Assembly: GCA_964343265.1 (NCBI GenBank)
Contig: CAYFIW010000001.1
Span: 6,709 to 70,708 of the forward strand
Direction of reading: 5' to 3'
DNA from: an uncultured Dehalococcoidia bacterium
GTDB taxonomy: Bacteria > Chloroflexota > Dehalococcoidia > Lucifugimonadales > UBA826
Length of the DNA stretch: 64,000 nucleotides
Shown here: positions 2,220 to 58,917 of the stretch, one piece after another
Position numbering within the stretch: position 1 is the stretch's first letter
Layout of the letters: every line of letters starts with the position of its first letter
Translations under genes and position numbers: made by a program
Notes under the pieces: generated by a model
The model's input: the letters and a program-made list of their open reading frames with translations, nothing else
Told to the model about the DNA's origin: nothing
Databases searched by the model: none

Positions 2220-2467
2220 AATCCACCTACCTGGGTCGTTTTGGTTCTCACACCATCGACACCGACAACAGTTTGAAGGCTTTTTACTGTCATGTATGAC
2301 CTCTCAGGAAAAGATCTCTCTTTATCTCGGAACCAATTATTTCTCTTGATTACCAACTCTCCCTGTAGGTATCACAAACCATATAACGACTATGGAGACC
2401 AATTCGATTATACGTCTCTCTTGAATAGAGGGTCAATCAAAAACCACGAACTTTACTAACATATGAA

Positions 2468-3565
2468 TTAATATATTTTTCCCGTGGATAAATAGTTTGA
2501 CAGATTTTCTTCGGACATACCGGTTATACCAAATTCCCTAGGTCCTCGACCTACACTCCATCCGTCAAATCCCATCACTAAACTTCCAATACTAACTAGA
2601 GAGTCAATCACTTGGGTTTCAACGGAAAATTGAGATCCCAGCTTACTCCATGCCGCTATTCCATATGGAATATCTTCAGTTAGCCACCTGCTTTCTAGGC
2701 TACCTGGAGCTTTTAGCCTAGTGAGCATATGACTTCCATTTATAGTCTCCCAAATTGACCCCTTAGGCCCAAATCCAGCCTTATGAAAGGATTCTCCCAC
2801 TGGAATGAGGTCATATCCAAGGGCTTCTCCCACGGCCATTCGCTCGCTATCAACAGCTTCAATTACTGTAGCTACGGATTTCGATACTCCTTCTTCATAG
2901 AAATAAAATTCTCCCCTAGAATATTCAATTCTCCCCGCATTCATTAAAACACCAGCAGGGTGTACAACGGGATTCATAGATGATAATCCACACTCCAATA
3001 CATCTTGATATGAAACTATTCCCGGAAAAAGAACACTTAGTTCCTCTTCAATAAATTTAGTCTTATTCGAAGGAAACACACCCATTCCAAGACCTGTAAT
3101 CTCTCCCCATATGATTGCGCCCGTTGCTGAAGTTTTTCGGCAAACATACGGAGCTGTATCGACTTCTGCTATTGTCAAACCAGAAATACCAAAATCAGAC
3201 ACTACTGCAGCAAATTCCATAGACCCTAAAGTACCGGGCATAATTACAACCTTGTGCCCACTCTGTAGATAAGGACCTACAAATTCAGCAAAGGGCCGAT
3301 GTGCATAAGCAGGAACTATTAATAACAACAAATCCGAAAAATCCAGAGCCTCTTTTGGATCTATAGTCACCAATGTTATTGGTGCAGGCCCAGTCTCCAT
3401 AACTCCTTCTAGATTAATTTCTTTGGTTTTGCTTAAATCAGTAACTGACTCTGCAAAATCAGGATGTTCCAAGAGACATATGTCATTACCAATATGACTC
3501 AATCTAGCGGCAACCGCAAAAGCGGTATTACCACCTCCTAAAATAGTTATTTTTTTTTCAACCAT
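2468..3565 (-). CDS. NAD(P)-dependent octopine/nopaline (opine) dehydrogenase family oxidoreductase
   Basis: N-terminal Rossmann motif ITILGGGNTAFAVAARL. Length and overall pattern resemble the opine or glycerol-3-P dehydrogenase-like family. The substrate is unknown. Confidence 0.6.
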   Translation of the reverse strand: MVEKKITILGGGNTAFAVAARLSHIGNDICLLEHPDFAESVTDLSKTKEINLEGVMETGPAPITLVTIDPKEALDFSDLLLLIVPAYAHRPFAEFVGPYLQSGHKVVIMPGTLGSMEFAAVVSDFGISGLTIAEVDTAPYVCRKTSATGAIIWGEITGLGMGVFPSNKTKFIEEELSVLFPGIVSYQDVLECGLSSMNPVVHPAGVLMNAGRIEYSRGEFYFYEEGVSKSVATVIEAVDSERMAVGEALGYDLIPVGESFHKAGFGPKGSIWETINGSHMLTRLKAPGSLESRWLTEDIPYGIAAWSKLGSQFSVETQVIDSLVSIGSLVMGFDGWSVGRGPREFGITGMSEENLSNYLSTGKIY

Positions 3566-3571
3566 AAATGT

Positions 3572-3799
3572 TTAGCCACCCATAAACATGTCAAGAATAT
3601 TTCCCATTTTTCCGCTACGCCTTTTAAAAAACTCAGTGAATCCACAATTGTCACATGTGATGTGAGAAAATTGTTGATTCTGAACATCAAAGAATCTCGA
3701 AAACCCTCCACCGGTGGTTCGTATAGTGCCTGTTTCATAAGTAGTGTTCTGACATTTAACACACTCGAATTGCGTGATCGTTTCAGGTTCGCTAGACAT
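3572..3799 (-). CDS. Small zinc-ribbon protein (DUF2082/Zn_ribbon_13-like)
   Basis: Two CxxC pairs (CVKCQ ... CDNCG) flank GGGFSRFFDVQNQQF, as I recall for this zinc-ribbon family. It sits 6 nt upstream of the opine dehydrogenase-like gene. Confidence 0.65.
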   Translation of the reverse strand: MSSEPETITQFECVKCQNTTYETGTIRTTGGGFSRFFDVQNQQFSHITCDNCGFTEFFKRRSGKMGNILDMFMGG

Positions 3800-3835
3800 G
3801 ATGCCTCCTTTTGTATTCCGTATAAAATTTACTAA

Positions 3836-5440
3836 CTACCCATTCCTTTTTTGAAAACCGGTCTTATTCAGAAAAAATCCTACTACTATGGCTACTAACA
3901 AAACGGCCAATGCCACATTAAAAACATCCGTAATTGCCCCGCTTAGACTACCCTTCAAAACCTCCACTACAATGTTGAAAGAATCAGAACCAATTTCCGC
4001 CGAAGCAGCGTCAAGAACAGATGATTTGGACTCAGAATCAATTAAGGCCCTTGGATTATTTTTCAATTCCTCTAAAGCCTGAGGCAGTATTTCAATTTCC
4101 AAACCCATAATACCTTTTTCAAGTTTATCTTCAAATCTCGTTGATAAAACAGAACCTAGCGCTGAAAGACCTATCAAGCCTCCTATGGTTCGCGCAAATT
4201 GGGTGAGGCTTGTCGCAGCACCAATTGTATCGGGCGAAGTGAAATTCTGGACCGCCAGAGTTAGAGTAGGAAAGGTTGAACCCAAGCCAAATCCAAGAAT
4301 AATAATAAAGGTAACGGCCATTCCATAAGCAGAATCACTGCCTAAATTACTGAATAGAAAAACCCCAAGCGCCATCACTCCAATGCCCAATAATCCCTGG
4401 ATTCGAAAATGTCCCCCAGTCCTTGATAAAACTTGGCCAGATATTGAAGCACCAGCTACGACCCCCAACATCATTGGAGTCAAAAATGTGCCACTGCTCG
4501 TAGCCGATGCTCCAAGAACTCCCTGGAAATATAACGGAATAAAAATTATGGCGCCAAACATTGCAAATCCGGTCAAAAGAGTTAAAACAAGACCAACAGA
4601 AACCATACGTTCTTTAAATAATCTGAGTGCAAGAACTGGATTGGTAACGCGTAATTCAACATATATCAATACAGCCGCAGATAAGAGGCCAACCATAATT
4701 AATCCAATTACTTGAGGGGCATTCCATGCATACTGCACTCCTCCAAGTGAAATTCCCAGTATGAAGCTCACTACAGAGATAACTAGAAGTCCCATCCCGA
4801 CGTAATCTAGTCTACGTTTTTCAGGATCTGATTCGATAGACGAATCAGGAAAATATTTGATCAATAAAAAAATTACTGGCCCGGCCAAAGGTATATTGAC
4901 AAAAAAAACCCAGTTCCATGAAAGCGAATCCGTTAAAAACCCGCCTAAAGTTGGACCCACGACAGATGAAATCCCAAAACAAGCTGCCAATATGCCCATA
5001 TATTTACCACGTTGCTCAGGGGAAAATAAATCTGCAATAGAAATGAAGGTGACAGCCATTATCGTTCCACCTCCAAGTCCCTGAATAACTCTGGATACAA
5101 TAAGTTGCGTCATGTCCTGGCTTATGCCACAGAGTATAGATCCTATGATGAAGAGAACCACAGAGCCAACGAAAAACCACTTTCGTCCATATATATCTGA
5201 CAGCCTGCCCACTATTGGAGCTACTGTGGTTGATGCAACGAGGTAGCCCGTCGTGATCCACACATACCTATCAAATCCACCTAGTTCAGCAACAATCGTA
5301 GGAGTAGCTGTACTAACTATAGTTTGATCTAGAGCAGCGAGAAACATTGTTAAAAGGATACAAACAAGGGTAATTACTACCTGAGCCTTGGGAAGCTCAA
5401 TAAAATCCTCATTTTCTGTTTTCTCACTTGCCTGGGCCAT
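3836..5440 (-). CDS. MFS transporter, DHA2 (EmrB/QacA-like, about 14 TMS) family
   Basis: Motifs LDQTIVSTATPTI and GRLSDIYGRKW (MFS motif A-like). Many hydrophobic segments in a 534-aa protein. Confidence 0.85.
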   Translation of the reverse strand: MAQASEKTENEDFIELPKAQVVITLVCILLTMFLAALDQTIVSTATPTIVAELGGFDRYVWITTGYLVASTTVAPIVGRLSDIYGRKWFFVGSVVLFIIGSILCGISQDMTQLIVSRVIQGLGGGTIMAVTFISIADLFSPEQRGKYMGILAACFGISSVVGPTLGGFLTDSLSWNWVFFVNIPLAGPVIFLLIKYFPDSSIESDPEKRRLDYVGMGLLVISVVSFILGISLGGVQYAWNAPQVIGLIMVGLLSAAVLIYVELRVTNPVLALRLFKERMVSVGLVLTLLTGFAMFGAIIFIPLYFQGVLGASATSSGTFLTPMMLGVVAGASISGQVLSRTGGHFRIQGLLGIGVMALGVFLFSNLGSDSAYGMAVTFIIILGFGLGSTFPTLTLAVQNFTSPDTIGAATSLTQFARTIGGLIGLSALGSVLSTRFEDKLEKGIMGLEIEILPQALEELKNNPRALIDSESKSSVLDAASAEIGSDSFNIVVEVLKGSLSGAITDVFNVALAVLLVAIVVGFFLNKTGFQKRNG

Positions 5441-13149: not shown

Positions 13150-15126
13150 CTACGGATCTACAGGAACAGTATCTATCTTGATTGAAGTTGGGTGAATTGT
13201 ATCCCGAGAGGTTCCAGAAATCACCATTACTGCTTCATCCACACTAGTACCAAATCCCTCTATTTCGAACCTAGCACGATTAAATTCATCAAAATTTATC
13301 TCAGAGACTGCAAAATCACCATCAGTTTTAAAAGTTATGAGCCGGCCAATAAAATTTTGCTTACGGGGAGCGTCAATCAAAACAAATCCCTCTGAATCCC
13401 ACCTTGTATCATCCGGTTCCAACCGTAGTTCAAGGGCAGGTAATTCTACCGCCCCTAACATAAACCCATCTCTATGAACTGCATCATCAGTAACGTATTC
13501 AAACCTCAACTTTATCTCTTTGCCTGAGTAATTATCTAGGCCTACCAAACGAGTATCCCAATTTCCATATCCCGTGTAACCATAACCATAGTTGTTTCCA
13601 GAAGGATTCGAATCAGTTGTACCGGAAGCTCTTGTTGTCTTCCAAGTTTCACCGTTATCTTCAGAAACTGAAACGTAGGTATAATCCCAATCTTTTTCAA
13701 TGTCGTACCACGCTTCAAACGAAAGATAAGGATTAATAACATCTCTAAGATCAAGATTTAAAGTCAACTTTGTATTAATAGAGTCGCCACGATTGGACCA
13801 CCAGCATTTTGAAGAACATTCCGTCAAGAATCTTGGGGAAATTTGGTCACCCCTTAGAGATACTAACGTTTTTTCACCTGGAGCATCTCCCTGTCTAGGA
13901 ATTTTGAAATACCTAGCACCATATTGCGGAATCTGATGCCTAGATCCACCCCATGGAATTAGAGACTCCTTAGCAGTAATAGCTAATGCCCAGTCAGAAT
14001 ATGAATAAACCCCTTCCACAGACCCAACATAATTAGCAACTATCCAATCCGAGAATTCATTATCAAAACTAGTCCCTTGTTTGGTAAGCCAAGAATCAAC
14101 TCCATTAATGCCGTCCTCTTCGAGCTCAGCTAGTTCACCCAGGCTATCAATACCACCATTTCTTCCTGCAGAAAACATAAAAAACAGTGATGAAGCCCCA
14201 TAGTGTGGAACTGTCTCCGATGGGTCATCCGGCCAGTGGACAAGGGAAATAGATGGAGAATCTAGAAAATATTTTGTAAAAGAACTTTCAAATCCAGCAA
14301 TGTAGGAAGCTACTTCTGACAGTCCTTCGTTGACCCAAGACTCTTCACCTCGATCCAAATTGTCGTGAATAGCGTGTTGATACTCATGTGTTAAAACCGC
14401 CAAATATTTAGATGTTAGTGGAGAGATTTTTAAAGGGTCCATATAAACCATCTCCCTTTGATTACTGGAAGGATGCACCCATTTGTACTGAGTATCTTGA
14501 CTTCCAAAATAACCGGCAGCTCCATTTAGGGGCGTATTTAGGACAACAAGCCTGTCATCACCATCGATACCAGGTTTGTTTATGTCACCAAATGTGGAAA
14601 TGATGATTGGGCGAATATCGGTTTCCCATCTTTCAGATGCTGCATCAAAAGAACTTGGAGATATATCGAGAGAAGTATCTAAGTACCAGTAAACATTCTC
14701 CGTAATTTTTATAAGTTCAGCCTCAATTTCATACGTTTGAGCACTCAGAGGATCAGTGACTGTAAAAAATACCTCCTCACCAACTTTTCTAGCGTCTTCT
14801 ATTCTTGAAGGCACTGTTGCCTGTTGATTCAAAGTCTCATTCGAGCGATATCTTTTGGCCAAACTTTCTAAGTCACGTTCAGGTGGAACATCACCTAGAT
14901 TTTTATTATCGGGGATAGGAGTAACAGTTGGCTGTACCTTCAGTTTTATAGGATTCTGAGGCTGATTTTTTACGGACACCTCTTGCAAATTCTCATTCTT
15001 CTTATCAGAAGTATCAACATATACCTGTGTATCTTTTACTTCACTAGTTGAACAGCCAATAAAAACGCTCAAAATGACAAGCCAAAACCAAGACCTTGGA
15101 AAATTCATAATTCTAATTGAATTCAC
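13150..15126 (-). CDS. Secreted lipoprotein zinc metallopeptidase (HExxH, clan MA; M30/M6-like features)
   Basis: Lipobox FIGC-S. The zinc site is LTHEYQHAIH ... WVNEGLSE (HExxH plus a downstream Glu). The C-terminal motif WYDIEKDWDYTYVSVSEDNGETW resembles the domain seen in immune-inhibitor-A-type proteases. Confidence 0.7.
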   Translation of the reverse strand: MNSIRIMNFPRSWFWLVILSVFIGCSTSEVKDTQVYVDTSDKKNENLQEVSVKNQPQNPIKLKVQPTVTPIPDNKNLGDVPPERDLESLAKRYRSNETLNQQATVPSRIEDARKVGEEVFFTVTDPLSAQTYEIEAELIKITENVYWYLDTSLDISPSSFDAASERWETDIRPIIISTFGDINKPGIDGDDRLVVLNTPLNGAAGYFGSQDTQYKWVHPSSNQREMVYMDPLKISPLTSKYLAVLTHEYQHAIHDNLDRGEESWVNEGLSEVASYIAGFESSFTKYFLDSPSISLVHWPDDPSETVPHYGASSLFFMFSAGRNGGIDSLGELAELEEDGINGVDSWLTKQGTSFDNEFSDWIVANYVGSVEGVYSYSDWALAITAKESLIPWGGSRHQIPQYGARYFKIPRQGDAPGEKTLVSLRGDQISPRFLTECSSKCWWSNRGDSINTKLTLNLDLRDVINPYLSFEAWYDIEKDWDYTYVSVSEDNGETWKTTRASGTTDSNPSGNNYGYGYTGYGNWDTRLVGLDNYSGKEIKLRFEYVTDDAVHRDGFMLGAVELPALELRLEPDDTRWDSEGFVLIDAPRKQNFIGRLITFKTDGDFAVSEINFDEFNRARFEIEGFGTSVDEAVMVISGTSRDTIHPTSIKIDTVPVDP

Positions 15127-15883: not shown

Positions 15884-16399
15884 TTAAACCCCAATAGCAT
15901 TGTCAAAAGCGTCTTCAGAGTAAGTAGCTCCTGAAAGAGAGATTCTTATAACATCGGCGCCTGTGAAATCAGCTCCACTCAGATCTGCATTATCCAGACG
16001 AACCCGGTATAAAGAAGCACCTTTAAAATTAGCTCCCCTGAGATCTGACCCGTGTAAGTCCGCACCTATCACCCTTGCGGTAGTTTGAATAGAATTAGAA
16101 GCGGCACCACTTAAATTGGATCCCTCAAAATTTGCATTCCTAAGATTCACATTTTTCATTTCAGCTACCGAAAAATTGGCTCGAACTGCCGTAACATGCT
16201 CCATATTTGCCCCATTTAACAGAGCACCTCTAAGGTTTGACCTGGAAAAATCACACCAACTTAGGTCAGATTGTTGAAAATTTGCACCAGCCAGATTTGT
16301 CCGTGACAAATCTATGCCAGATAGACACAAACCAGCCATAGACTTTCCCAGAGAAGCCATCTCAATCACCATTTCTCTCGTCAAATTCTCCGAGTCCAT
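15884..16399 (-). CDS. Pentapeptide-repeat protein
   Basis: Tandem A(D/N)LxG-type pentapeptides run throughout (LSRTNLAGANFQQSDLSWCDFSRSNLRGALLNGANM...). Confidence 0.85.
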   Translation of the reverse strand: MDSENLTREMVIEMASLGKSMAGLCLSGIDLSRTNLAGANFQQSDLSWCDFSRSNLRGALLNGANMEHVTAVRANFSVAEMKNVNLRNANFEGSNLSGAASNSIQTTARVIGADLHGSDLRGANFKGASLYRVRLDNADLSGADFTGADVIRISLSGATYSEDAFDNAIGV

Positions 16400-19945: not shown

Positions 19946-20140
19946 ATGTTAGATGATCTGATGACAACCAAGGAATTAGCGGAGTATTTACAACTCGATA
20001 GGATGACCATTTACAAACTCCTAAAATCGGGAGATATTCCAGCAAATAGGGTAGGGCATCAGTGGCGATTTTTCAGGTCTGATATCGACTCTTGGATTCG
20101 CTCAAAACAGACGTCAGAAAGTATAACAACAGCTAATTAG
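19946..20140 (+). CDS. Small helix-turn-helix DNA-binding protein (excisionase/MerR-like HTH_17 family)
   Basis: Segment TTKELAEYLQLDRMTIYKLLKSGDIPANRVGHQWRF is the classic excisionase-family HTH. GGGAGG lies 7 nt upstream of the ATG. Confidence 0.8.
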   Translation: MLDDLMTTKELAEYLQLDRMTIYKLLKSGDIPANRVGHQWRFFRSDIDSWIRSKQTSESITTAN

Positions 20141-20144
20141 AACT

Positions 20145-20182
20145 AAAAAGAGGGGCTGCACATATCAGGCTCCTCTTTTTTT
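20145..20182. terminator. Bidirectional rho-independent terminator between convergent genes
   Basis: Sequence AAAAAGAGGGGC-TGCACATATCAG-GCTCCTCTTTTTTT. It forms an 8-bp stem (one G.U pair) flanked by an A-run and a T-run. Confidence 0.75.
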
Positions 20183-20209
20183 AGTTCATCACCACAATGC
20201 CCCCAGAGA

Positions 20210-22513
20210 TCAGTCACCTTTGTCAGTATTTCCAACTTGAGGTAAGAATGACTCGAAGCTACTGACCTTTCCTTTCTCCAATTCTTTTGCATTTTCTAAT
20301 GCCCCGGATATGACGTTAATTAGACCAGTTTCTGCTTGCCTATCCAGATCTCTTACCCTTTTTTCTATTTCCCCTAATTGAGAGGTCAGCTTTTCCTGCT
20401 CAGTATATAGATCATCCAAACTATTCCACTTATTTTCCAACTCAGCATCTAACTCTTTAGCCAGGGTTTCCAAAGGAGCCATTTTTTCAGCGAAGAGTTC
20501 ATCTTTTTTGCCTTCAAGTTCATCGCGCTGCGATTCCATTTCTTTCTGAAAGGCCTCCTCCAGATTATCTCTTCTTCCATCCAATTCCCTGTATCGATCT
20601 TCGAGACCCGAAAACATTGCCTCAATTTCTTCTTCTATTTTCTCTCTAATATCTTCATTCTGGTCTTCCAGATTGTTGCGGATATCCCTGTTCTCATCTT
20701 CAAACTCATCCCACATGTCCTGAGTGAGGTCTTCGACTTCACGTCTGCGTTGTTTTTCCCATGCCATCAGTTCATCCCGGATTTCTTCTCTTAAATCCTC
20801 ACCTCTCCGTTCCATCTCCTCTCGTCTCTCATCAAGGTCATCCCATTTCGATTCAAGTTCCATACGTTCTTTGTTAAAAGACATCTCCTCTCTTCTTAAC
20901 GGACGTTGTTCTAATTGGAGTGCCCTCTGTGCATCTTGTAAAGGGTCAATCAAGTTTTCGATTTCACGAATCTGTTTCCTTATACCTTTAGCGTCTTCCT
21001 CTTTGGATTTATGGAATGAATCACTTTCATCCCATAACTTTTTAATTTCTGCCTCTAGAAGGTCAATCTGTTTTTCAATATCTGCGACCCCATCAGGTTG
21101 CGAGGACGACGACCCATACATGTCTTCATCTATCTTCGCCAACAGCGAATTTAAGTCATCTTCAGCATTTTTTTGCATATCTTTGAATTTTGCTTCTTCG
21201 GAAGCAATATCAACCGATCCGACATTAGAAATTGAAGCTTCAAGAATTTTTTTCCTGTCATCATGACTTTTCTTAAGATCCACAAGTATCGATGAGTATT
21301 CAGAGCGTTTATCGGAAATTGTCATCACTTCAGAATCATCATCTCCTTTGCCCGCGGCTTTCAAGTCAGTAATCTTGCTATCTGCCTCTTCTATAAGTTT
21401 CTTGTAATTATCGACATCTAATTGATACTGATCATTAAGTGATTCTAAGTCCACTGAAGCATCTGCTGAAGCAGCCGCAGCATCGGCTTTGTTGTATGCA
21501 TCAGATCTCTGATTCTCGATGGCCCTCAATTGCTCTTCATACTGACCCCACGCTGCTTCTATTTTTTGATCATATTCTTGAAAATCTCTATCCTTCTTCT
21601 GATCAAAAGCATCCCACGCATCATTTACAGTCTCTCTTAAAGCATCAATTTGCTTATGTTTATCATCTATTAAGGTATCAAAATCTTTCGGTTCATCTCT
21701 CTCCCAAACATCTCTTTCTTGCTCCCAAAGTTCCTCACGCTGGTCTTCTAATGGATACCTCTGATCTTCTATATCCATTTGTTTTTCTTCTATGTTCATC
21801 AATTTCTCACGAAGATCATTGCTACGCCTGTCTATGTCTTTCCGCTGATCTTCTAACAGGTTAAATTCGTCCTTCAAAGCTTTCGCTTCAGCCTTGAAAT
21901 CATCGGGCCCATCTTCCGCTTCCTCCATCCGTTCTTGAATCTCATCATCAAGGGATCTCCATATAGCTTGAATTTCCTTATCTTTACTCTTCCGAGATTC
22001 TTCAAATTCAGCCTCAAATTTCCTCCAGAGATCTTTCTGCTTGTCCTCCACTTGAGTTTCAAACAGATCCTCAGCTTTATCCTCTATCTCCTTTCGCTCT
22101 TTTTCCAGGTTGTCATACTCAGCTTCTATTTCGTCTTCAAATTTGTCTCGTCCTTCCCCTTCTTTCATAAAAAGGACATCGAATTTATCTCGCATCTCAT
22201 CTTCAAATTCATCCCCAAGTTCCCTGCCTTGATCGTAAAGATCCTCTCTTTGCGATTCGAGAGCTTCGATCTCCTTTTCTAAAGGCTCTATTGATTCTTG
22301 AAGCAACGCAATTTGGTCAATCAAGGGATCCAGTTCAGTGGTTTGTATCTCTAAAATTTGCTTTTTTATATCTAAAGCCGCCTGTGCTTCCTCCTCGTCC
22401 ACTATTCCGCACCCTAAAAGGGCTATTGCAACCAAAGAAACAAGGGATACCATCATCTTTATGTTCATAACGTTAGCTACCCATCCATTTCTTTTACTGA
22501 TATTGTGACTCAA
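20210..22513 (-). CDS. Very large, highly charged (E/D/K/R-rich) predicted coiled-coil lipoprotein, unknown function
   Basis: Signal plus lipobox (VSLVAIALLGC-G). The remaining ~730 residues are almost entirely charged, heptad-like sequence. The true start may be the ATG at 22468 (MNIKMMVSL...). Confidence 0.7.
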   Translation of the reverse strand: MSHNISKRNGWVANVMNIKMMVSLVSLVAIALLGCGIVDEEEAQAALDIKKQILEIQTTELDPLIDQIALLQESIEPLEKEIEALESQREDLYDQGRELGDEFEDEMRDKFDVLFMKEGEGRDKFEDEIEAEYDNLEKERKEIEDKAEDLFETQVEDKQKDLWRKFEAEFEESRKSKDKEIQAIWRSLDDEIQERMEEAEDGPDDFKAEAKALKDEFNLLEDQRKDIDRRSNDLREKLMNIEEKQMDIEDQRYPLEDQREELWEQERDVWERDEPKDFDTLIDDKHKQIDALRETVNDAWDAFDQKKDRDFQEYDQKIEAAWGQYEEQLRAIENQRSDAYNKADAAAASADASVDLESLNDQYQLDVDNYKKLIEEADSKITDLKAAGKGDDDSEVMTISDKRSEYSSILVDLKKSHDDRKKILEASISNVGSVDIASEEAKFKDMQKNAEDDLNSLLAKIDEDMYGSSSSQPDGVADIEKQIDLLEAEIKKLWDESDSFHKSKEEDAKGIRKQIREIENLIDPLQDAQRALQLEQRPLRREEMSFNKERMELESKWDDLDERREEMERRGEDLREEIRDELMAWEKQRRREVEDLTQDMWDEFEDENRDIRNNLEDQNEDIREKIEEEIEAMFSGLEDRYRELDGRRDNLEEAFQKEMESQRDELEGKKDELFAEKMAPLETLAKELDAELENKWNSLDDLYTEQEKLTSQLGEIEKRVRDLDRQAETGLINVISGALENAKELEKGKVSSFESFLPQVGNTDKGD

Positions 22514-23839: not shown

Positions 23840-24091
23840 TTATCTGGGTTCTCGGGGCCTAGCCTCGTTAACCCTAATGTCACGTCCCATGAAGTCATTG
23901 CTATCTAAAGCGCTAATTGCTTCTTTGGCCTGATCATCATCAGTCATCTCGACAAAGCCGAAACCTTTCGACCTGCCTGTATCTCTATCGGTAATCACTC
24001 GTACTGCAGTAACCTCACCGTACCGTGCGAAAAGGTCCCTGAGATCGTCCTCAGAAGTACTGTACGAAATATTCCCAACATATATATTCAC
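23840..24091 (-). CDS. RRM-type RNA-binding protein
   Basis: RNP-2 motif IYVGNI and RNP-1 motif KGFGFVEM. It is 83 aa with a GTG start. Confidence 0.9.
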   Translation of the reverse strand: MNIYVGNISYSTSEDDLRDLFARYGEVTAVRVITDRDTGRSKGFGFVEMTDDDQAKEAISALDSNDFMGRDIRVNEARPREPR

Positions 24092-25190: not shown

Positions 25191-26402
25191 TCATATCACC
25201 TTATATCCATGTGACATCACTGACATTACCTTATTCTCATCCCAGGGATGTGCCCTCGCAATATCTTCATTAATTTCAGTTCCCCAACCAGGAGCTGACG
25301 GTACCGTCATATAGCCGTCAACTATTTCAGGAACGCTAGTTGTTAATTCATCTTTCCAAGGAACATCATCAATATCTATTTCCATGATTCTTACATTGGG
25401 CAAGGATGCACACAAAGATGCACTCACAAAACTGGACAGGTGACTATAGTAATTGTGTGGAGCTACGTTATGTTGAAATACTTCAGCTAAATCACCAATC
25501 TTCTTAGATTGACTAAACCCATTCCAAGGAACGTCTATCATAAATATGTCAGCAACATGTTCCTCAAAATAAGGCAGATACTGATCCATGTAGAAAAGAT
25601 TTTCACCTGTGCAAATTTTGGTGGATGTAGAGTCTTTAATTTGACGTAAACTTGATGGATCATACATGTCAATTTCAAGCCACAACATATCGAATTGTTC
25701 TAAAACTTTAGCAATCCTCAAACATCCTTCGGTTTTAAAGTGAAAATTCAGATCCAGATTGATGTCTATGTCATCCCCCACGGCATCTCTAAACGTCCCA
25801 ATTAGAGTTTCTATATGCGGAATAAGCCACTTGGGTGCTATTTGATCAGTCGTACCAGCTCCACCAAATGAACCGCCGCCGAATGTAGCTCCTTCACCCG
25901 GAAGTAAAACATTAGTCTTCAAAGCAGTGAAGCCCCTCTCTTTTACTTCCTTCCCCAGAGCAGTTACATCCGCCCATGAATTAATGGGTGGAGTCCCCAA
26001 AATGTCCGAATGGCGGATCCTGCTGGACCCACAATGAGACCAATAAACCCTAACCTTATCTCTTGTCGGACCTCCGAATAGTTCAGCAACTGATATACCA
26101 AGAGCTTTTGCTTTGATATCAATAAAAGCACAATCCAGTCCAGCTAGTGCTTTAGCCGCAACTCCCCATCTACTCTGACGTGTATTGATTAACATTTCTG
26201 TAAACCGCATTTCGAATGCCCTCGGATCCTTGCCTATTAGCACGGGCTTTAGATCTCTTATAACTCCATCTATCCCATTAGGTAATTTTCCGTCACTACA
26301 TTCTCCCCACCCATAAATTCCTTCATCCGTTTCAACCTTCACAAACATCCAAGGTCTCCAACCGGCATCTACGATAAATGTTTTTATGTCAGTTATCTTC
26401 AA
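25191..26402 (-). CDS. Enolase-superfamily enzyme (mandelate racemase/muconate lactonizing family; mannonate/galactonate dehydratase-like)
   Basis: N-terminus MKITDIKTFIV...FVKVETDEGIYGWGE is typical of the acid-sugar dehydratase subgroup. Metal-ligand-like acidic residues occur in DINLDLN, WLEID and ENL contexts. Confidence 0.8.
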   Translation of the reverse strand: MKITDIKTFIVDAGWRPWMFVKVETDEGIYGWGECSDGKLPNGIDGVIRDLKPVLIGKDPRAFEMRFTEMLINTRQSRWGVAAKALAGLDCAFIDIKAKALGISVAELFGGPTRDKVRVYWSHCGSSRIRHSDILGTPPINSWADVTALGKEVKERGFTALKTNVLLPGEGATFGGGSFGGAGTTDQIAPKWLIPHIETLIGTFRDAVGDDIDINLDLNFHFKTEGCLRIAKVLEQFDMLWLEIDMYDPSSLRQIKDSTSTKICTGENLFYMDQYLPYFEEHVADIFMIDVPWNGFSQSKKIGDLAEVFQHNVAPHNYYSHLSSFVSASLCASLPNVRIMEIDIDDVPWKDELTTSVPEIVDGYMTVPSAPGWGTEINEDIARAHPWDENKVMSVMSHGYKVI

Positions 26403-49218: not shown

Positions 49219-49293
49219 GCCGACGTAGCTCAGTGGTAGAGCAGCTGTTTTGTAAACAGCAGGTCATCAGTTCAATCCTGATCGTCGGCTCCA
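49219..49293 (+). tRNA. tRNA-Thr (anticodon UGU), CCA encoded
   Basis: Hand-folded cloverleaf: acceptor GCCGACG/CGTCGGC, D arm GCTC-AGTGGTA-GAGC, anticodon arm GCTGT-TTTGTAA-ACAGC, T arm ATCAG-TTCAATC-CTGAT, and discriminator T followed by CCA. Confidence 0.9.
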
Positions 49294-51091: not shown

Positions 51092-51898
51092 ATGAGTATT
51101 GGACGAAAATTTACAATCGCCCTGCTTGCTTTGTTTTCGATCTTGGGAGTGGCATGCGGATCTTCGGGCTCTAGTGAATCAGAATCAGACCTCGGTTCTG
51201 GTACATCTAATAGGGTCTCCACAACAGCTTCGTCGCTTTTCCCAGACGGGACTCTTGCAAAAAACATCAGGCTGAAATTGAATTTACCTGAAGGGGCGGA
51301 CATTCCTGCAGATACGGACTTCACGCAATTTACAGTTTTCAATGCGGCGCTTGAGTTGTATATTGAAGATCTGACCGGTTTAGAGAGATTGTCCAATCTT
51401 GAAGATTTGGATCTTGCTCAAAATAAACTTGTTGATATTACTCAGGTTGGCCAGCTGACTAAAATGAAACGACTTAACCTCAGCCAGAATGCTATTGTCG
51501 ATATCTCGGCCTTGGCACCGTTGACAGATGTGTATTATCTTCATCTTATGCAGAATCAAATAGCTGATATCTCTGCTTTGGCTGGTATGACAGAGATAAC
51601 AGAGATAAACATACAAGATAACTTGATTAGTGATATTTCACCTCTAGCCAACATGAAAGGTTTAGAGGTAATCAGATTGAATACAAACCAAATAACTGAT
51701 TTGTCACCTCTGGCGGGTCTTCCAAATGTTAAGGCGTTGGAATTTTCAAAGAATAATGTGACTGACTTGTCTCCCCTTCTAGAGGCGGGATGGGGCGAAG
51801 GGACTGAGATTAGGTGTTGGGGAGTTCCATTAGACGATAATTCAATCAATAACGTTATCCCTGCGCTTGAAGCAGCAGGCGTCGATGTTAAATTTTAG
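51092..51898 (+). CDS. Leucine-rich-repeat (internalin-like 22-residue LRR) lipoprotein
   Basis: Lipobox LGVAC-GSS. There are about 7 tandem repeats of L..L..L.L..N.I.DIS.L (nt ~51374-51797). Confidence 0.8.
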   Translation: MSIGRKFTIALLALFSILGVACGSSGSSESESDLGSGTSNRVSTTASSLFPDGTLAKNIRLKLNLPEGADIPADTDFTQFTVFNAALELYIEDLTGLERLSNLEDLDLAQNKLVDITQVGQLTKMKRLNLSQNAIVDISALAPLTDVYYLHLMQNQIADISALAGMTEITEINIQDNLISDISPLANMKGLEVIRLNTNQITDLSPLAGLPNVKALEFSKNNVTDLSPLLEAGWGEGTEIRCWGVPLDDNSINNVIPALEAAGVDVKF

Positions 51899-54030: not shown

Positions 54031-55950
54031 ATGAGTATTGGACGAAAGTACGGGATTGCGGTTTTGGCTCTAGTGGCCTTGATCTCGATCATCGGGACTG
54101 CGTGTAGTTCTGCTGATGATGAAGCAGAAGCTCCTGCAGCCCCTGCTGCTGCCGCCCCGGCACCTGCCGCGGCTGCCCCAGCACCTGCTGCTGCTGCACC
54201 AGCAGCCCCTGCTGCACCAGCCCCTGCTGCACCAGCAGCGAATCCTACTGCTGTACCAGCAAAGCCGGTGCAAGGTGTTACAACGGCACCTAAAAAGCTA
54301 TCGGAATCTGTCAAGGTGGTTGAGACCACAGGCGGACCTGAGTATGGTGGAACATTAAGAGTTGTTCTGGGTGCTGACCCAGGATCAAAGTGGGATATGT
54401 GCGAGTTCAAGGCGCAGAGTATGCTTTCATACCCTGTTGAGAACTTCCTAATGGGTGACTATCACAAAGGCCCATCTGGAGATGGATCCACAACATTCCA
54501 ACCACGTCTTGGTATTGGTACGGACAAGCTTGCTATCGGCGCCCTAGCTGATGCATGGGAAGTTCCAGACCCATTAACCTATAGCTTCCATTTGAGAGAA
54601 GGCATAAAGTGGCAGCCTAACGAAGTAACTAACGGTAGGCCTGTCAATGTCGACGAACTCGTTGCTGAAGCAATAAGAATTTGGGATTGCAGATTCCCCA
54701 GACACGACTTTGTTGATGACATAACCGGTGATGACACGGATGGTGACGGTGTAAATGACACCCTTACCTTCCACACAAACATGCCTATATCCTTCTGGGG
54801 ATATGAGTTTGCTTGGGGTCCATATTTCATATATGCACCGCCGGAAACCATTGAACTTGGTACTGACAACCCAGACAACCAGTCGGGTACAGGCCCATGG
54901 ATGACAAAAGACTACACAGCTGGTAGCACAATTGAGTTCGAAAAGAACCCAGATTACTGGCAAAAGTACACCTATGAAGGTGAGACATATGATCTTCCTT
55001 TCCTAGACGGTGTGACAGAAGTTATTATTCCTCAGGAAGCCACTAGGCTTGCTGCTATCAGGACTGGTCAAGTAGACCACGTCATGAGGGTGAGAACTGC
55101 TGACAGGCCTGTACTTGAGAAGTCTAATCCTGAATTAGGAAGAGCTCTTGCTCTAGAAGACTCATTTGGCTACTTCATGCCTATGAACAAGCCTCCATTT
55201 GACGATATCAGAGTCAGGAAGGCTATGAGCATGGCTATTGATAGACAGGTATACACTGACGCTCTATTTGAGGGTGACTCTGTTGTCTTGTCTTTCCCAT
55301 TACAGCCTGAGTGGCCATTGCACTACGAGTCACTTGAAGAACAGCCCGCTGATGTTCAGGAAGGATTTGCCTATGACCCAGCTGGCGCAGAAGCTTTGCT
55401 GGATGAGGCCGGCCTTACCAGAGATGGTGATGGCGTTCGATTTGAAATTGACATGTTGATTAGGAATACCAATCAGATGGAACTAGAAGCTGCTGAAATA
55501 TCAGTTGGTTTCTGGGATGACATCGGAGTTAAGGTAAACCTCGAGCTTGTTGATGGTCCTGTTCACCAGAGCAGACTATTTGAGAAGCAGTTTGACTTCT
55601 TTGCAAATAACGTAACAGGGCGACCTAACGCTTTGAATGACTTCAGAGCGGGACACCAGTGGAATAGGTCAAACCTGAACGACACAGACTTCCACGAAAT
55701 GTGGGACGACGTGCTTGTTGCAACCGACTCGGCCAAGCAGGCTCAGTTGATCAAAGAAGCCGCGACAGGCTACCTGAAACTATTCCCGTCGGTCCACACA
55801 CCGGCTGGTCTAGGTGGTGACTACTGGCAACCCTGGTTGAAGAACCACAATGGTGAGCGTGTATTGGCATTCGTCGACTACGCTTCCAGGTGGATGTACG
55901 TCTGGGTTGATCGGGAGCACAGAGAAAGAGAGACTGGTTTCGCTGACTAA
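54031..55950 (+). CDS. ABC transporter substrate-binding lipoprotein, family 5 (peptide/nickel/opine type) with an Ala/Pro-rich tether
   Basis: The ATG at 54031 is preceded by GAGGAG. Lipobox IGTAC-SS. A 37-residue A/P linker is followed by an SBP_bac_5-like body (YTFHLREGIKW-type segment SFHLREGIKWQ). The track start at 53962 is an over-extension. Confidence 0.85.
   Translation: MSIGRKYGIAVLALVALISIIGTACSSADDEAEAPAAPAAAAPAPAAAAPAPAAAAPAAPAAPAPAAPAANPTAVPAKPVQGVTTAPKKLSESVKVVETTGGPEYGGTLRVVLGADPGSKWDMCEFKAQSMLSYPVENFLMGDYHKGPSGDGSTTFQPRLGIGTDKLAIGALADAWEVPDPLTYSFHLREGIKWQPNEVTNGRPVNVDELVAEAIRIWDCRFPRHDFVDDITGDDTDGDGVNDTLTFHTNMPISFWGYEFAWGPYFIYAPPETIELGTDNPDNQSGTGPWMTKDYTAGSTIEFEKNPDYWQKYTYEGETYDLPFLDGVTEVIIPQEATRLAAIRTGQVDHVMRVRTADRPVLEKSNPELGRALALEDSFGYFMPMNKPPFDDIRVRKAMSMAIDRQVYTDALFEGDSVVLSFPLQPEWPLHYESLEEQPADVQEGFAYDPAGAEALLDEAGLTRDGDGVRFEIDMLIRNTNQMELEAAEISVGFWDDIGVKVNLELVDGPVHQSRLFEKQFDFFANNVTGRPNALNDFRAGHQWNRSNLNDTDFHEMWDDVLVATDSAKQAQLIKEAATGYLKLFPSVHTPAGLGGDYWQPWLKNHNGERVLAFVDYASRWMYVWVDREHRERETGFAD
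54130..54240 (+). repeat. GC-rich low-complexity tract (GCN/CCN codons) encoding the Ala/Pro linker
   Basis: Protein sequence APAAPAAAAPAPAAAAPAPAAAAPAAPAAPAPAAPAA. It includes an imperfect 21-nt duplication (GCACCTGCCGCGGCTGCCCCA / GCACCTGCTGCTGCTGCACCA). It stands out strongly against the AT-rich background. Confidence 0.9.
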
Positions 55951-56034: not shown

Positions 56035-58917
56035 ATGTTTCTTTTTAGCTCAGTTATAGGACGAATATTTCCTCTGACTGATACGTCTTTAAAAAAGCGC
56101 CGCTTGGTAGGGGTATTGATTATCCTGGTTATTCTTGCGGCATTTCTTTCTTTAAATAGATTTCCTAAGATCGACACCATTGACGCTGATTTAGCAATAG
56201 TAGCGTCGCCTGATTCTCAGTGTTTCCAAGGGTTCTGTATTGAAGACTTGGAAGAAAGATCCTTGTTGGAAAGGTGGTGGGATTTTTCTTTAGAGTATCT
56301 TAGAAATGTCTCCATCGGAATGTTATTTGCATTCGTGATGGCCGGATTGACAGAAGCTTTTATTTTTCCTCCTGACAAAAGAGAGAGATTTATTGGTTCC
56401 GGATTCAAGGGTGTAGTAAAAGGAGTATTGATTGGTCCCGTAGTTAATTTGTGTTCGGCATGTATTGTGCCTATCGCAAATGGATTTAGAAGAACGGGGT
56501 CAGGATTGGAAACTACGGTAGCAATAACCCAGAGTTCTTCTACCTTGAATTTATTGGCATTAGTCATGGCGGCGATAGCTTTTGCTCCGACGATCAGTGT
56601 AACTCGCATATCCCTTAGCTTGGCTGGGGCCCTTTTATTAGGTCCATTAGTTGCCTGGGTTTCCAGATCATCTGTGAGTTCAGGCGCGGAAGACGATGCG
56701 TTTGGGGATATTCCAACTTTGATAGAGATCCCTGATGAATCTGGATGGGTTGAGACTCTTTATACTGCTTCTCTTCAATTTGTGAGGGCTACTTTTGGAT
56801 ATTTTATTCGTCTCGGACCGATAATGTTAATTGCTGGGTTTGGAAGTGGATTCGTAATACAGTGGATAAGTCCTCAAACTGTTACGACATGGATTGGGGA
56901 TGACATTTTAGGGGTTTTGGTAGCTGCGACTATTGGGGTGTTTATCAACGTCCCTCTTATGTTTGAAATTCCGCTGGTGGCGGCAATGTTATTAGCTGGA
57001 ATGGGTACGGCACCTGCGGGCGCTATATTATTCACGGCCGCGGCAGGTGGTCCGATTACGTTTTGGGGATTGTCTAAAGTGATGCCTAAACGTGGGGTTT
57101 TAACACTCTTTTTCGCAACATGGTGTCTGGGTGTATTAGGTGGATTGATTCTTTTGTTTGTGACTTCAATTATTGAAGAGGATAGAAATTTTACTTTTAG
57201 AGAGGACTATGACAACCGAACCAGGGATCATGTGAATTTTGATTTCAGAGAACCCTTATATCCGAATCGGCCTACTAACCTAAGGTTCACGGACGTCACT
57301 CTCGACTCCGGAATAATTTCTAAACATATGGTGACCGACGTAGTGGAAGGTAGAACTGAACCAAGAGATATGATCGCCGGGGCTGTTGCAGAAGACTTCG
57401 ATGGAGATGGTTGGATAGATATATTTATTCTCACTGGAGAAGGCCCAGCGTTTTTGTATATGAATGATAAAAACTCTGGCTTTGTAGAGGAAGGGAGTAA
57501 GAGAGGAGTGTCGTTAGTTGAGAATCTCAAAGTATCTGCTGCGGCGGCAGATTATGACAACGATAATGATGTTGATATCGTCGTGACCTATGAAGATTTA
57601 TCTCCAACACTTTTGAGGAACGACGGTAAAGGCTATTTCACACCTGACTTCAATTTGTTTTCTCAGCCGGAAAAATTATCAACTAGCCCAAGTTGGGGTG
57701 ATGTCGATAATGATGGCTTTTTGGAATTGGTGGTAGGTGAGTGGAATTCTTCCCGTGCTGAAGAGTATGACTTTTTTTCAAATCAATCATCGGAGTTGGG
57801 AGCTATCCCGGCAGCTGATGGAGATTTGAGAAAACCGAGGCTCAGATCTGATTCTAAGATTGGGAAAGACGCATTGGCTCCTGTTTTCATGTACAAAAAT
57901 TTAGGTGATGGCCAAATGGTAGCCTATGAATTCAGAAAAACCAGAGAGATAGACCTTTGGGTATTTGCCCCTAGGTTTGCCGATATGAACGGTGATGGAT
58001 TGGTTGATTTACCTGTAGTGAGTGATTTCAATAGTTCAAAAGTGTATTTGAATGTTGGTGATGGAATGTTTGAGCTGGATGTGTCAGCGACTCGGTCATT
58101 GACCGATGAGAATGGTATGGGTTCTGCAATCGCAGATTATGATAACGACGGTGATCTTGATTGGTTTATATCCAGTATCTTCGGTCAACATGATCCAATT
58201 AAAGATAGTCATGCTGGAACAGGGAACAGGTTTTATAGAAATGATGTTGGTTTCCAGTTAACAGATGTTACTGAGGAATCAGGTGTTCGCAGAGGAGGTT
58301 GGGGATGGGCCGCAAGTTTTGGTGACTTTGATAATGATGGTGATTTGGACCTTTATCATGCTAATGGTTGGATTCAAGATGAAGAAGAAGGAGATCCTCT
58401 AGAATTTCATAACGAGTCAAACAAGTTGTTTGAAAATGTTGAGGATGGGCAATTTCAGGAGGTGGGAATGCAGTCTGGAGCGGGGCTTAAATCTCAGGCT
58501 CGAGGAGTAATCGTATTCGACTATGATAATGACGGAGACTTAGACATTTTTGTAACAAATAATCAGGAGTACGTTGAAAAGAATGGAAATTTGCAAAGAA
58601 ATCCGGCTGGTCCAATACTGCTTCGAAACGACACATTAAATGAAAATCACTGGATGAAAGTGATGTTGGAAGGCAAAGGTACGCATCATACGCACGGCAT
58701 AGGAGCGCGTATTTATGTTACTACCGATGGGGTTACTCAATTAAGGGAGCTACATGCGTCTACAAATTATGCTAGTCAAGAACCCGGACGTGTAGCTCAC
58801 TTCGGTATTGGGGAGAGTAGTTTGGTAGAGGAAATCAGAGTGGAGTGGCCTAACGGTGAGGTGTCAGTTGAGACCCAGGTGCCGGTAGACAGACTGATAG
58901 TTATTTCAAGCCCGTAA
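56035..58917 (+). CDS. Fusion protein: a polytopic permease domain (ArsP_1/DUF318-like) joined to an FG-GAP/VCBS beta-propeller and an ASPIC/UnbV domain (CRTAC1-like)
   Basis: Residues ~20-390 are multi-TM and contain GPVVNLCSACIVPIANGF and a second pseudo-repeat, INVPLMFEIPLVAAMLLAGMG. Residues ~430-960 hold repeated D.D.DGD.D calcium-loop FG-GAP motifs (DFDGDGWIDIF, DYDNDNDVDIV, DVDNDGFLELV, DMNGDGLVDL, DYDNDGDLDWF, DFDNDGDLDLY, DYDNDGDLDIF). The C-terminus GIGARIYV...SQEP..HFGIG is UnbV/ASPIC. Confidence 0.7.
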   Translation: MFLFSSVIGRIFPLTDTSLKKRRLVGVLIILVILAAFLSLNRFPKIDTIDADLAIVASPDSQCFQGFCIEDLEERSLLERWWDFSLEYLRNVSIGMLFAFVMAGLTEAFIFPPDKRERFIGSGFKGVVKGVLIGPVVNLCSACIVPIANGFRRTGSGLETTVAITQSSSTLNLLALVMAAIAFAPTISVTRISLSLAGALLLGPLVAWVSRSSVSSGAEDDAFGDIPTLIEIPDESGWVETLYTASLQFVRATFGYFIRLGPIMLIAGFGSGFVIQWISPQTVTTWIGDDILGVLVAATIGVFINVPLMFEIPLVAAMLLAGMGTAPAGAILFTAAAGGPITFWGLSKVMPKRGVLTLFFATWCLGVLGGLILLFVTSIIEEDRNFTFREDYDNRTRDHVNFDFREPLYPNRPTNLRFTDVTLDSGIISKHMVTDVVEGRTEPRDMIAGAVAEDFDGDGWIDIFILTGEGPAFLYMNDKNSGFVEEGSKRGVSLVENLKVSAAAADYDNDNDVDIVVTYEDLSPTLLRNDGKGYFTPDFNLFSQPEKLSTSPSWGDVDNDGFLELVVGEWNSSRAEEYDFFSNQSSELGAIPAADGDLRKPRLRSDSKIGKDALAPVFMYKNLGDGQMVAYEFRKTREIDLWVFAPRFADMNGDGLVDLPVVSDFNSSKVYLNVGDGMFELDVSATRSLTDENGMGSAIADYDNDGDLDWFISSIFGQHDPIKDSHAGTGNRFYRNDVGFQLTDVTEESGVRRGGWGWAASFGDFDNDGDLDLYHANGWIQDEEEGDPLEFHNESNKLFENVEDGQFQEVGMQSGAGLKSQARGVIVFDYDNDGDLDIFVTNNQEYVEKNGNLQRNPAGPILLRNDTLNENHWMKVMLEGKGTHHTHGIGARIYVTTDGVTQLRELHASTNYASQEPGRVAHFGIGESSLVEEIRVEWPNGEVSVETQVPVDRLIVISSP

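Follow-up and report, generated by a model that had tools for sequence, protein, structure and literature searches.

A lineage-restricted acidic coiled-coil lipoprotein of SAR202 bacteria with a predicted antiparallel hairpin fold

SAR202 bacteria (Dehalococcoidia, Chloroflexota) belong to the most abundant bacteria in the dark ocean. Here we analyze a hyper-acidic coiled-coil protein with a lipoprotein signal that is encoded in a SAR202 genome, within a 64,000-nucleotide stretch of contig CAYFIW010000001.1 that we refer to as the window. The open reading frame (ORF) 20210..22513, on the minus strand, encodes 767 amino acids (aa), of which 733 belong to the mature part. Comparison of the homologous sequences and structure prediction with AlphaFold2 (AF2) strongly support a fold in which the two halves of the mature chain, with ~350 residues per arm, pair with each other as an intramolecular antiparallel two-helix coiled coil. 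Taken alone, this structural part of our explanation appears quite probable; the complete explanation, in which the hairpin also acts as a strut or brush in the cell envelope, is more tentative, with chances that we put slightly below even. The relevant features of the gene, all on the minus strand and with residues in the numbering of the listed ORF, are as follows.

20210..22468, minus strand: most likely coding sequence, 752 aa plus stop, with the ATG at 22468 corresponding to Met16 of the listed ORF; acidic coiled-coil lipoprotein
22469..22513, minus strand: 15-codon upstream extension to the first TTG, probably untranslated; shared only by the near-identical homolog L007
22409..22468, minus strand: signal peptide and lipobox (MNIKMMVSLVSLVAIALLG followed by C), with Cys35 as the predicted lipidation site; pattern common to all 20 GTDB homologs
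21350..22408, minus strand: N-terminal arm, residues 36-388 (AF2 helices 40-196, 205-271 and 278-386; conservation profile; compensated indels)
21338..21355, minus strand: predicted tip loop of the hairpin, residues 387-392, AGKGDD (AF2 loop, residues 372-377 of the trimmed chain; center of the indel mirror)
20213..21349, minus strand: C-terminal arm, residues 389-767 (AF2 helices 393-428, 436-466, 476-568 and 583-747; identity of 0.68 in the block 716-740)

Mirrored arms and the predicted antiparallel hairpin

One line of evidence for the hairpin comes from the lengths of the two arms, which we measured in 19 complete homologs between the anchors F125-I241 on the N-terminal side and P538-F655 on the C-terminal side. 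The two lengths closely co-vary (r = 0.96), with N/C pairs of 116/117, 93/95, 100/102, 72/73, 106/113 and 125/128 residues; the difference between the arms is 1 to 7 residues in all homologs but one, and no permutation of the length classes matches the observed pairing.

The insertions and deletions (indels) that separate the length classes can be mapped individually. Five indel events are compensated at mirrored positions, such that the coordinates of each pair, i and j, sum to approximately 780. A heptad insert after residue ~133 in L010 and L013 is paired with a heptad insert before residue ~650, and the 22-residue insert at ~167-188 that is common to the window protein, L007 and the L018 group is paired with a 17-28-residue insert at ~597-616. 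Within the L018 group, 10 extra residues at ~153 are matched by 11 extra residues in the C-side insert, and the L012 group combines a 21-residue deletion at ~205-225 with a 22-residue deletion at ~557-578. In L013 and L016, unequal insertions at ~204 and ~578 coincide with the predicted elbow of the rod. The center of the mirror falls at residue ~390 (388-391), which is the site of a 140-300-residue insert in most homologs as well as the site of the loop at 387-392 in the AF2 model. Mirrored arm lengths and mirrored interruptions, the pattern expected of an antiparallel hairpin, are thus found in the aligned sequences and in the predicted model, and mirrored compensating indels of this kind would amount to a clean demonstration of hairpin topology from sequence alone.

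Structure comparison points in the same direction. The two lowest-confidence internal breaks in the AF2 model are themselves mirrored (197-204 versus 569-582, with a sum of ~776), and the modeling strongly supports an elbow near these residues. In a Foldseek search against the PDB, the best matches of the model are antiparallel coiled coils, namely MukB, the MukB elbow, Smc5/6, Rad50, PrgA and the cytoplasmic domains of chemoreceptors; the template modeling (TM) scores, 0.1-0.35, are low, as expected for long flexible rods. In the model of the homolog P0001 (predicted local distance difference test, pLDDT, of 63), the first and last long helices, which would be basal in the hairpin, comprise 145 and 146 residues, and the insert of this protein is modeled as short helices of 25-36 residues each at 363-563.

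The two arms also show traces of a degenerate direct duplication: residues 45-273 of the N-terminal arm align with residues 507-700 of the C-terminal arm (hhalign probability 96.6%), and the autocorrelation of the sequence has a lag at ~468-475. Concerted evolution of such a tandem duplication was considered as the cause of the equal arms and rejected: the deletion pair of the L012 group fits only the mirrored mapping, not the direct one, and because a direct duplication cannot account for this pair, concerted evolution is not the cause of the equal arms.

The best-conserved blocks of the family are residues 36-135 and 666-750. The former is the conserved membrane-proximal part of the N-terminal arm, in which P63 and P77 are invariant; the C-terminal arm includes the most conserved block of all, RDLDRQAE-GL-NVISGAL-ELEK (716-747), and an F-x-S-F-L-P tail. 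It follows from the hairpin topology that the conserved N- and C-terminal ~100 residues would adjoin each other beside the lipid anchor, and that the variable middle (~390) would form the distal tip. Another proline, P254, is invariant in all 19 sequences with a called residue, and under the mirror rule it faces P524, which is a proline in the window protein and in P0001, but not in P0002.

At ~0.15 nm per residue, arms of ~350 residues give a rod of an estimated ~50 nm, or ~25 nm if folded at the elbow. The initial annotation of this gene, made from the sequence of the window, had proposed a rod on the scale of 100 nm; this estimate assumes a single unbroken helix and has to be roughly halved, given that the mirrored indels, the AF2 breaks and the Foldseek matches indicate a hairpin.

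The tip insert itself (present in P0001, P0002 and P0015-P0020; alignment columns ~417-560) consists of 3-5 repeats of a unit of ~35-45 aa that opens with N-P-[EA]-[FYW] and in many cases closes with T-P-E. The units are predicted to form short helices and show no Pfam match.

Coiled-coil periodicity and predicted helices

The AF2 model of the window protein, which was built on a shallow alignment, is all-helical (pLDDT 78; predicted TM score, pTM, 0.30), with the seven helices given above extending over nearly the entire mature chain, the longest of 157 and 165 residues. The distribution of hydrophobic residues has the corresponding periodicity: the autocorrelation peaks at lags 7 (z 7.4), 11 (5.3) and 14 (4.4), with further peaks at 18, 22 and 29, and the spectrum has its maximum at 3.6 residues (z = 10). 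Such a pattern, present here over long helices, is characteristic of a coiled coil in which heptads are mixed with hendecads, and it bears out the heptad-like spacing that had been noted initially. Residues of opposite charge are over-represented at spacings of i+3 (z 4.2) and i+4 (z 2.1).

The composition is similarly as first described, in that the mature part is dominated by E, D, K, R and Q (127 E, 98 D, 65 K, 50 R and 42 Q), with 46% charged residues, a net charge of -110 and little glycine (3.1%) or proline (1.4%). The accompanying remark that aromatic residues other than tryptophan are almost lacking does not hold, with 21 Phe and 12 Tyr against 11 Trp. Core hydrophobic residues account for ~25% of the sequence throughout, and the only run of at least 12 residues devoid of them is the Ala-rich segment 341-353. 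This continuity rules out a single-alpha-helix domain, a possibility that the initial annotation had left to be checked with predictors; the protein is a true coiled coil. Taken together with the model, the sequence strongly supports a mature chain that is almost wholly alpha-helical, with a continuous hydrophobic seam.

Tryptophans in the coiled-coil core

The initial annotation had drawn attention to 11 Trp residues in the mature part, seven of which occur in the context W-x-x-[FLY]-[DE]. Exactly these seven were found (WRKFE, WRSLD, WDAFD, WGQYE, WDDLD, WDEFE and WNSLD), whereas 0.46 are expected from composition-preserving shuffles, none of which reached seven in 20,000 trials. A hydrophobic residue or Ala precedes the Trp in nine of the 11 cases, and in the seven motif cases the third residue after the Trp is hydrophobic and the fourth acidic.

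Among the homologs, five of the 11 Trp columns (163, 270, 300, 585 and 696) are kept as W, F or Y in most sequences. Trp 185 and Trp 601 are located within the paired lineage-specific inserts, and the remaining Trp columns are specific to the species of the window. The number of motifs in the homologs ranges from 0 to 4 and that of Trp residues from 0 to 15, which indicates that the motif is a subfamily flavor of the coiled-coil core and not a defining repeat. It is a widened a/d-type core signature ([hydrophobic]-W-x-x-hydrophobic-acidic), specific to the subfamily, and no separate repeat module. The mirror rule does not place the Trp residues of one arm opposite those of the other. The bulky aromatic core residues probably help to lock the register of two charged arms of low complexity.

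Of the original idea of a degenerate repeated module, the non-randomness and the internal duplication thus stand, whereas the Trp module dissolves into the coiled-coil core; as to whether the Trp motif is conserved in homologs, which the initial annotation had left to be checked, homologs exist and the five columns remain aromatic, the motif itself not being conserved across the family.

Export signal, acidity and distribution of the family

The leader reads MNIK-MMVSLVSLVAIAL-LGC and combines a basic n-region, a hydrophobic h-region and a lipobox of the form [LVI][ASTVIL][GAS]-C, here A-L-L-G-C, as originally recognized, with the Cys at residue 35. All 20 N termini available for the GTDB homologs have a hydrophobic core behind a basic n-region, then [AGS]-C and then G-[ILV]-[VI]-D-x-E; the Cys itself is invariant, and more distant relatives also have a lipobox (for example, GC-DF or SC-GV). 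Three other ORFs of the window (13150-15108, 51092-51898 and 54031-55950) have canonical lipoprotein signal peptides and are acidic too, which suggests that the lipoprotein pathway is in use in this organism. Together, these signals support the window protein being an exported lipoprotein.

The three additional lipoprotein candidates show some features of their own. The 652-aa product of 13150-15108 (minus strand; leader ...VFIGC) contains an immune-inhibitor-A-like MAM domain (PF20773, 95.6 bits) and is possibly an exported, metalloprotease-like protein. The two others, 51092-51898 and 54031-55950 (both plus strand), are acidic and share near-identical leaders (MSIGRK...); they are followed by a gene for a 960-aa acidic protein (56035-58917, plus strand; net charge -62), and the stretch at 54-56 kb is the peak of G+C content in the window (0.495).

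The net charge density of the window protein is -14.5 per 100 aa, compared with +6 to -10 for other ORFs of the window and -6 to -7 for the other predicted lipoproteins, and the charge is evenly distributed along both arms. The full-length members of the family all have -6 to -16 charges per 100 aa regardless of their length, so acidity is a conserved property of the family; the 251-aa fragment P0088 has -1.4.

A scan of GTDB with one genome per species identified relatives encoded at 21 loci, 20 of which come from metagenome-assembled genomes (MAGs) labeled Dehalococcoidia, Chloroflexota or SAR202 cluster, the remaining one, L025, being labeled just "uncultured bacterium". A profile search of 1.84 billion cluster representatives produced 82 matches at E <= 1e-3, most of them fragments of the same proteins, and a fringe of shorter relatives of 370-810 aa shares the N- and C-terminal blocks; the family as a whole ranges from ~370 to ~1085 aa. 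Two other searches were less informative: an initial word-indexed homology search was dominated by low-complexity words and returned two proteins only, and a second search with the C-terminal 113 residues as the query returned chiefly fragments. In the databases, the homologs are named "hypothetical protein" or, spuriously, "chromosome segregation ATPase" (automatic names on two homologs) or "FtsB"; those labeled "hypothetical" or "chromosome segregation ATPase" should be given new names. In our literature searches, we found no paper on this family. Judging by the sequences retrieved, the family is small, unnamed and restricted to Chloroflexota, mainly SAR202.

Within the family, two variations in architecture were observed. 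In L008 (the OSU_TB40 SAR202 MAG), tandem paralogs are encoded at 69-2201 and 2453-5041; the upstream copy, which is truncated at the contig end, is a typical member with acidic character and Trp residues, and the 862-aa downstream copy is Lys-rich, far less acidic (net charge -70) and nearly Trp-free. A near-identical 863-aa copy of the downstream type (net charge -72) is present in L009 (OSU_BB04), where the tandem arrangement may be the same as in L008. In P0017, tandem G-F-D-N-P-D-G-G-D-G-Q repeats beyond the conserved C-terminal block make up an extra acidic, Gly-rich tail.

Possible functions

SAR202 have been cultured only recently; the cultured strains are monoderm, lack genes for peptidoglycan synthesis and have an outer layer reminiscent of a surface layer (S-layer) (PMC10444878). 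Because cultured SAR202 are monoderm and lack these genes, a lipoprotein of this group would be located on the outer face of the only membrane. In Tepidiforma, a related genus of Dehalococcoidia, the distance between the membrane and the S-layer is about 40 nm (PMC10284905), and in the marine oligotrophic archaeon Nitrosopumilus, a negatively charged surface layer is described as enriching cations (PMC11153153).

Against this background, we propose that the window protein would be exported by the Sec pathway and lipidated at Cys35, resulting in a rod on the outer face of the single membrane of a monoderm cell free of peptidoglycan. There, it would act as a polyanionic strut or brush that keeps open or fills the gap separating the membrane from the outer proteinaceous layer and concentrates counter-cations in this gap, as a protein counterpart of what lipoteichoic acid, Braun's lipoprotein and archaeal S-layer stalks provide elsewhere. 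We regard this function as possible but rather doubtful.

Several observations weigh against the hairpin strut. The window protein does not have the tip insert that most homologs carry; the support for the hairpin consists of indel co-variation and of fold matches with low TM scores (0.1-0.35), together with an AF2 model of pTM 0.30. With family members that span ~370 to ~1085 aa, a single fixed ruler length is not conserved, and the actual envelope space of SAR202 may be narrower than the 50 nm of the rod. Scans of the window protein against Pfam and NCBIfam yielded no model at the cut-off, with SF-assemblin, SMC, Rad50, HlyD and ZorA below threshold, and a profile search of the PDB sequences yielded no sequence-related solved structure, only marginal matches to SNARE and hemagglutinin coiled coils. 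Finally, comparison of the neighborhoods of the family loci revealed no conserved neighbor, the adjacent genes being unrelated metabolic ones that vary by lineage.

In one alternative, the hairpin would be a dedicated anchor or stalk of the S-layer, that is, a membrane-bound pedestal of the outer layer that sets the width of the pseudo-periplasm, analogous to archaeal SlaB, to tetrabrachion stalks or to Thermotoga Omp-alpha. The absence of peptidoglycan genes and the S-layer-like outer layer of SAR202 (PMC10444878) are in line with such a role, the 40 nm gap in the related genus is of the same order as the predicted ~50 nm rod, and the anatomy fits, with the lipid anchor at the base and, in most homologs, a tip domain at the far end. 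Nevertheless, conservation is lowest at the tip, where binding to the S-layer would have to take place, and the window protein wholly lacks this part, no S-layer gene is linked at any of the loci compared, and the rod length varies about threefold across the wider family, so that we consider a dedicated stalk unlikely. We give the same low likelihood to the possibility that charge is the primary property and that the protein is a cation trap or buffer, a dense polyanion on a lipid anchor that would gather Mg2+, Ca2+, trace metals or cationic substrates at the membrane of an oligotroph, with the coiled coil as a mere soluble scaffold for carboxylates. The net charge of -110, even over both arms, the conservation of acidity across the family where neither length nor Trp content is conserved, and the precedent from Nitrosopumilus are compatible with this role; yet the Pfam and NCBIfam scans detected no recognizable metal-binding motif or domain, other exported proteins of the genome are acidic too, so that part of the acidity may reflect general adaptation to seawater, and the strict register of the arms and the conserved termini suggest that the architecture matters.

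An outward-facing role, as a steric shield or anti-adhesion spacer with a variable tip that keeps cells, particles or phages off the membrane or presents the tip for binding, is brought to mind by the Foldseek match to PrgA (6z9l; E 3e-3, probability 0.99), a surface-anchored two-helix antiparallel coiled coil with a tip domain that acts by steric hindrance (bioRxiv 10.1101/2020.06.18.156562), and by the opposition of P254 and P524 under the mirror rule and the variability of the tip. The TM score to PrgA is just 0.20 and there is no sequence similarity, no CAP or other tip domain and no LPXTG; moreover, this is a chromosomal gene on which purifying selection is strong and which is syntenic with its ortholog, unlike a typical variable gene of defense or exclusion, and we view this role as improbable. 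A filament or lattice parallel to the membrane, in which hairpins polymerize via their conserved ends and support the wall-less cell in the manner of SF-assemblin or spectrin but on the outside, appears slightly more improbable still. A near-threshold Pfam match to SF-assemblin/beta-giardin (29.1 bits versus a cut-off of 30.6; residues 606-755), the lag-29 autocorrelation signal, the strongly conserved termini as potential polymerization interfaces and the lack of peptidoglycan could be cited in its favor, but the score does not reach the gathering threshold and coiled-coil composition typically gives rise to such matches, an anionic membrane should repel a rod with a net charge of -110, and there is no evidence of self-association. 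The notion of a cytoplasmic SMC/Rad50-like chromosome protein derives from the automatic name on two homologs ("chromosome segregation ATPase"), from weak NCBIfam matches to SMC and Rad50 (36-38 bits) and from the Foldseek matches to SMC arms; given that these scores are far below the cut-offs of 567-1087 bits, that there are no ATPase head or hinge domains and that a signal peptide and lipobox are conserved at the N terminus, it can be practically dismissed.

As a conserved and lineage-restricted acidic rod of ~50 nm with a lipid anchor, the protein is a concrete candidate for a component of the SAR202 envelope, be it a spacer, an S-layer pedestal or a reservoir of cations. In the most far-reaching version, the SAR202 envelope would have this family as its main architectural element, with the cell wall and teichoic acids replaced by a lawn of lipid-anchored, polyanionic hairpins of ~50 nm. 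We consider this unlikely; if true, such a lawn would set the extracytoplasmic width, carry the outer protein layer and create a cation-rich compartment, which would be a previously undescribed envelope design. If the protein is merely a generic acidic surface protein, the gain is a modest one in annotation.

Gene boundaries, selection and genomic neighborhood

The ORF 20210..22513 is as listed in the initial annotation, but its start codon probably requires revision. All homologs other than the near-identical L007 begin at the equivalent of Met16, and the TTG at 22513 is therefore probably too far upstream, the ATG at 22468 being the more likely true start. The gene is real and constrained: the ratio of nonsynonymous to synonymous substitution rates (dN/dS) relative to the L007 ortholog, whose full-length identity is 95% and whose locus is syntenic with the window, is 0.081, within the range of 0.02-0.15 for the flanking enzyme genes, which indicates ordinary purifying selection.

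By its layout, the lipoprotein gene is monocistronic, with a divergent amidohydrolase gene upstream and, beyond an intergenic hairpin, a convergent gene for a 64-aa HTH_17 protein downstream. In agreement with the first description, the gene stands alone, without a conserved neighbor in any lineage compared. The intergenic element is as follows.

~20141..20188, no strand assigned: inverted repeat between the convergent genes (GAACTAAAAAGAGGGGC...GCTCCTCTTTTTTTAGTTC), bordered by an A-run and, at its other side, a T-run; plausible bidirectional intrinsic terminator

The bidirectional terminator proposed initially is thus discernible as an inverted repeat with its A- and T-runs, but the consensus terminator scan made no call at ~20141-20188, because the loop is longer than the limit of the scan, and the predicted fold (-19.3 kcal/mol for 81 nucleotides, z -0.6) is not statistically distinctive.

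The convergent gene that shares this hairpin (19946-20140, plus strand) encodes a stand-alone HTH_17 (excisionase/MerR-like) DNA-binding protein. Genes of the enolase superfamily (MR_MLE) and pentapeptide-repeat genes recur around the family loci (in the window at 25191-26402 and 15884-16399, respectively, both on the minus strand; in L007, L012, L014, L017 and L023, and in L001, L018 and L021-L023, respectively); because their distance and orientation vary and both families are massively expanded in SAR202, this recurrence probably reflects paralogy and not synteny. Elsewhere in the window, 23840-24091 (minus strand) encodes an 83-aa RNA-binding protein with a single RRM (PF00076, 86.5 bits), and a tRNA gene at 49219-49290 (plus strand) is the sole Rfam match (72 bits).

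Comparison with known systems

Each of the known systems that we compared with the window protein shares part of its features. One of them is enterococcal PrgA, a surface-anchored two-helix antiparallel coiled coil of 385 A with a paired-proline kink and a tip domain (bioRxiv 10.1101/2020.06.18.156562). Like PrgA (6z9l), the window protein would be a single surface-anchored chain whose N- and C-proximal segments run antiparallel and whose central part forms the distal tip, and P254 and P524 recall the paired prolines of the kink. PrgA differs in being attached to peptidoglycan through a C-terminal LPXTG, in the CAP protease domain at its tip, in being plasmid-encoded and in not being hyper-acidic; with no LPXTG in the sequence, no domain match and a TM score of just 0.20, the window protein was not assigned to PrgA-like surface exclusion proteins.

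The arms of SMC, MukB and Rad50, the best fold matches, likewise fold within one chain into antiparallel coiled coils that measure ~50 nm and have an elbow, and the lengths of their N- and C-terminal arms co-vary. In contrast to the window protein, they are cytoplasmic and have ATPase head and hinge domains, and the window protein scores 36-38 bits against NCBIfam cut-offs of 567-729. Membership in the SMC/Rad50/MukB group was rejected, since the NCBIfam matches (14-38 bits against cut-offs of 567-1087) cover coiled-coil segments only and the N terminus is a signal peptide.

Braun's lipoprotein (Lpp) is an N-terminally lipid-anchored coiled-coil protein of the envelope whose length sets the envelope spacing. 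It differs from the window protein in being a parallel trimer of 58 aa that is linked to peptidoglycan through a C-terminal Lys in diderm bacteria. Lpp membership was likewise rejected, on the grounds that the window protein has no Pfam or NCBIfam match to Lpp, a mature part of 733 aa and a C terminus that reads ...TDKGD, and that SAR202 have no peptidoglycan genes. In envelopes that are wall-less or otherwise unusual, the long coiled-coil stalks SlaB, tetrabrachion and Thermotoga Omp-alpha are anchored in the membrane and keep an outer layer of protein at a set distance from it; unlike the window protein, they are parallel oligomers with transmembrane or SLH anchors, and they show no homology to it. 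Lipoteichoic acid, a lipid-anchored polyanion that binds cations on the outer face of the monoderm membrane, is a polymer of glycerol phosphate and not a protein, so that the analogy is functional only. SF-assemblin/beta-giardin (PF06705), the best Pfam match (E 8e-7, residues 606-755; also precomputed for the fragment P0003), resembles the window protein as a segmented coiled coil, but the score of 29.1 bits is below the gathering cut-off of 30.6, the family is eukaryotic and cytoskeletal, and the match, most likely one of periodicity and composition, was not accepted as membership.

The window protein is best described as a surface-anchored coiled-coil stalk that is new in being N-terminally lipidated, single-chain antiparallel, hyper-acidic and restricted to Chloroflexota, a form that would extend the single-chain antiparallel coiled coil of the PrgA and SMC type to a lipid-anchored polyanion.

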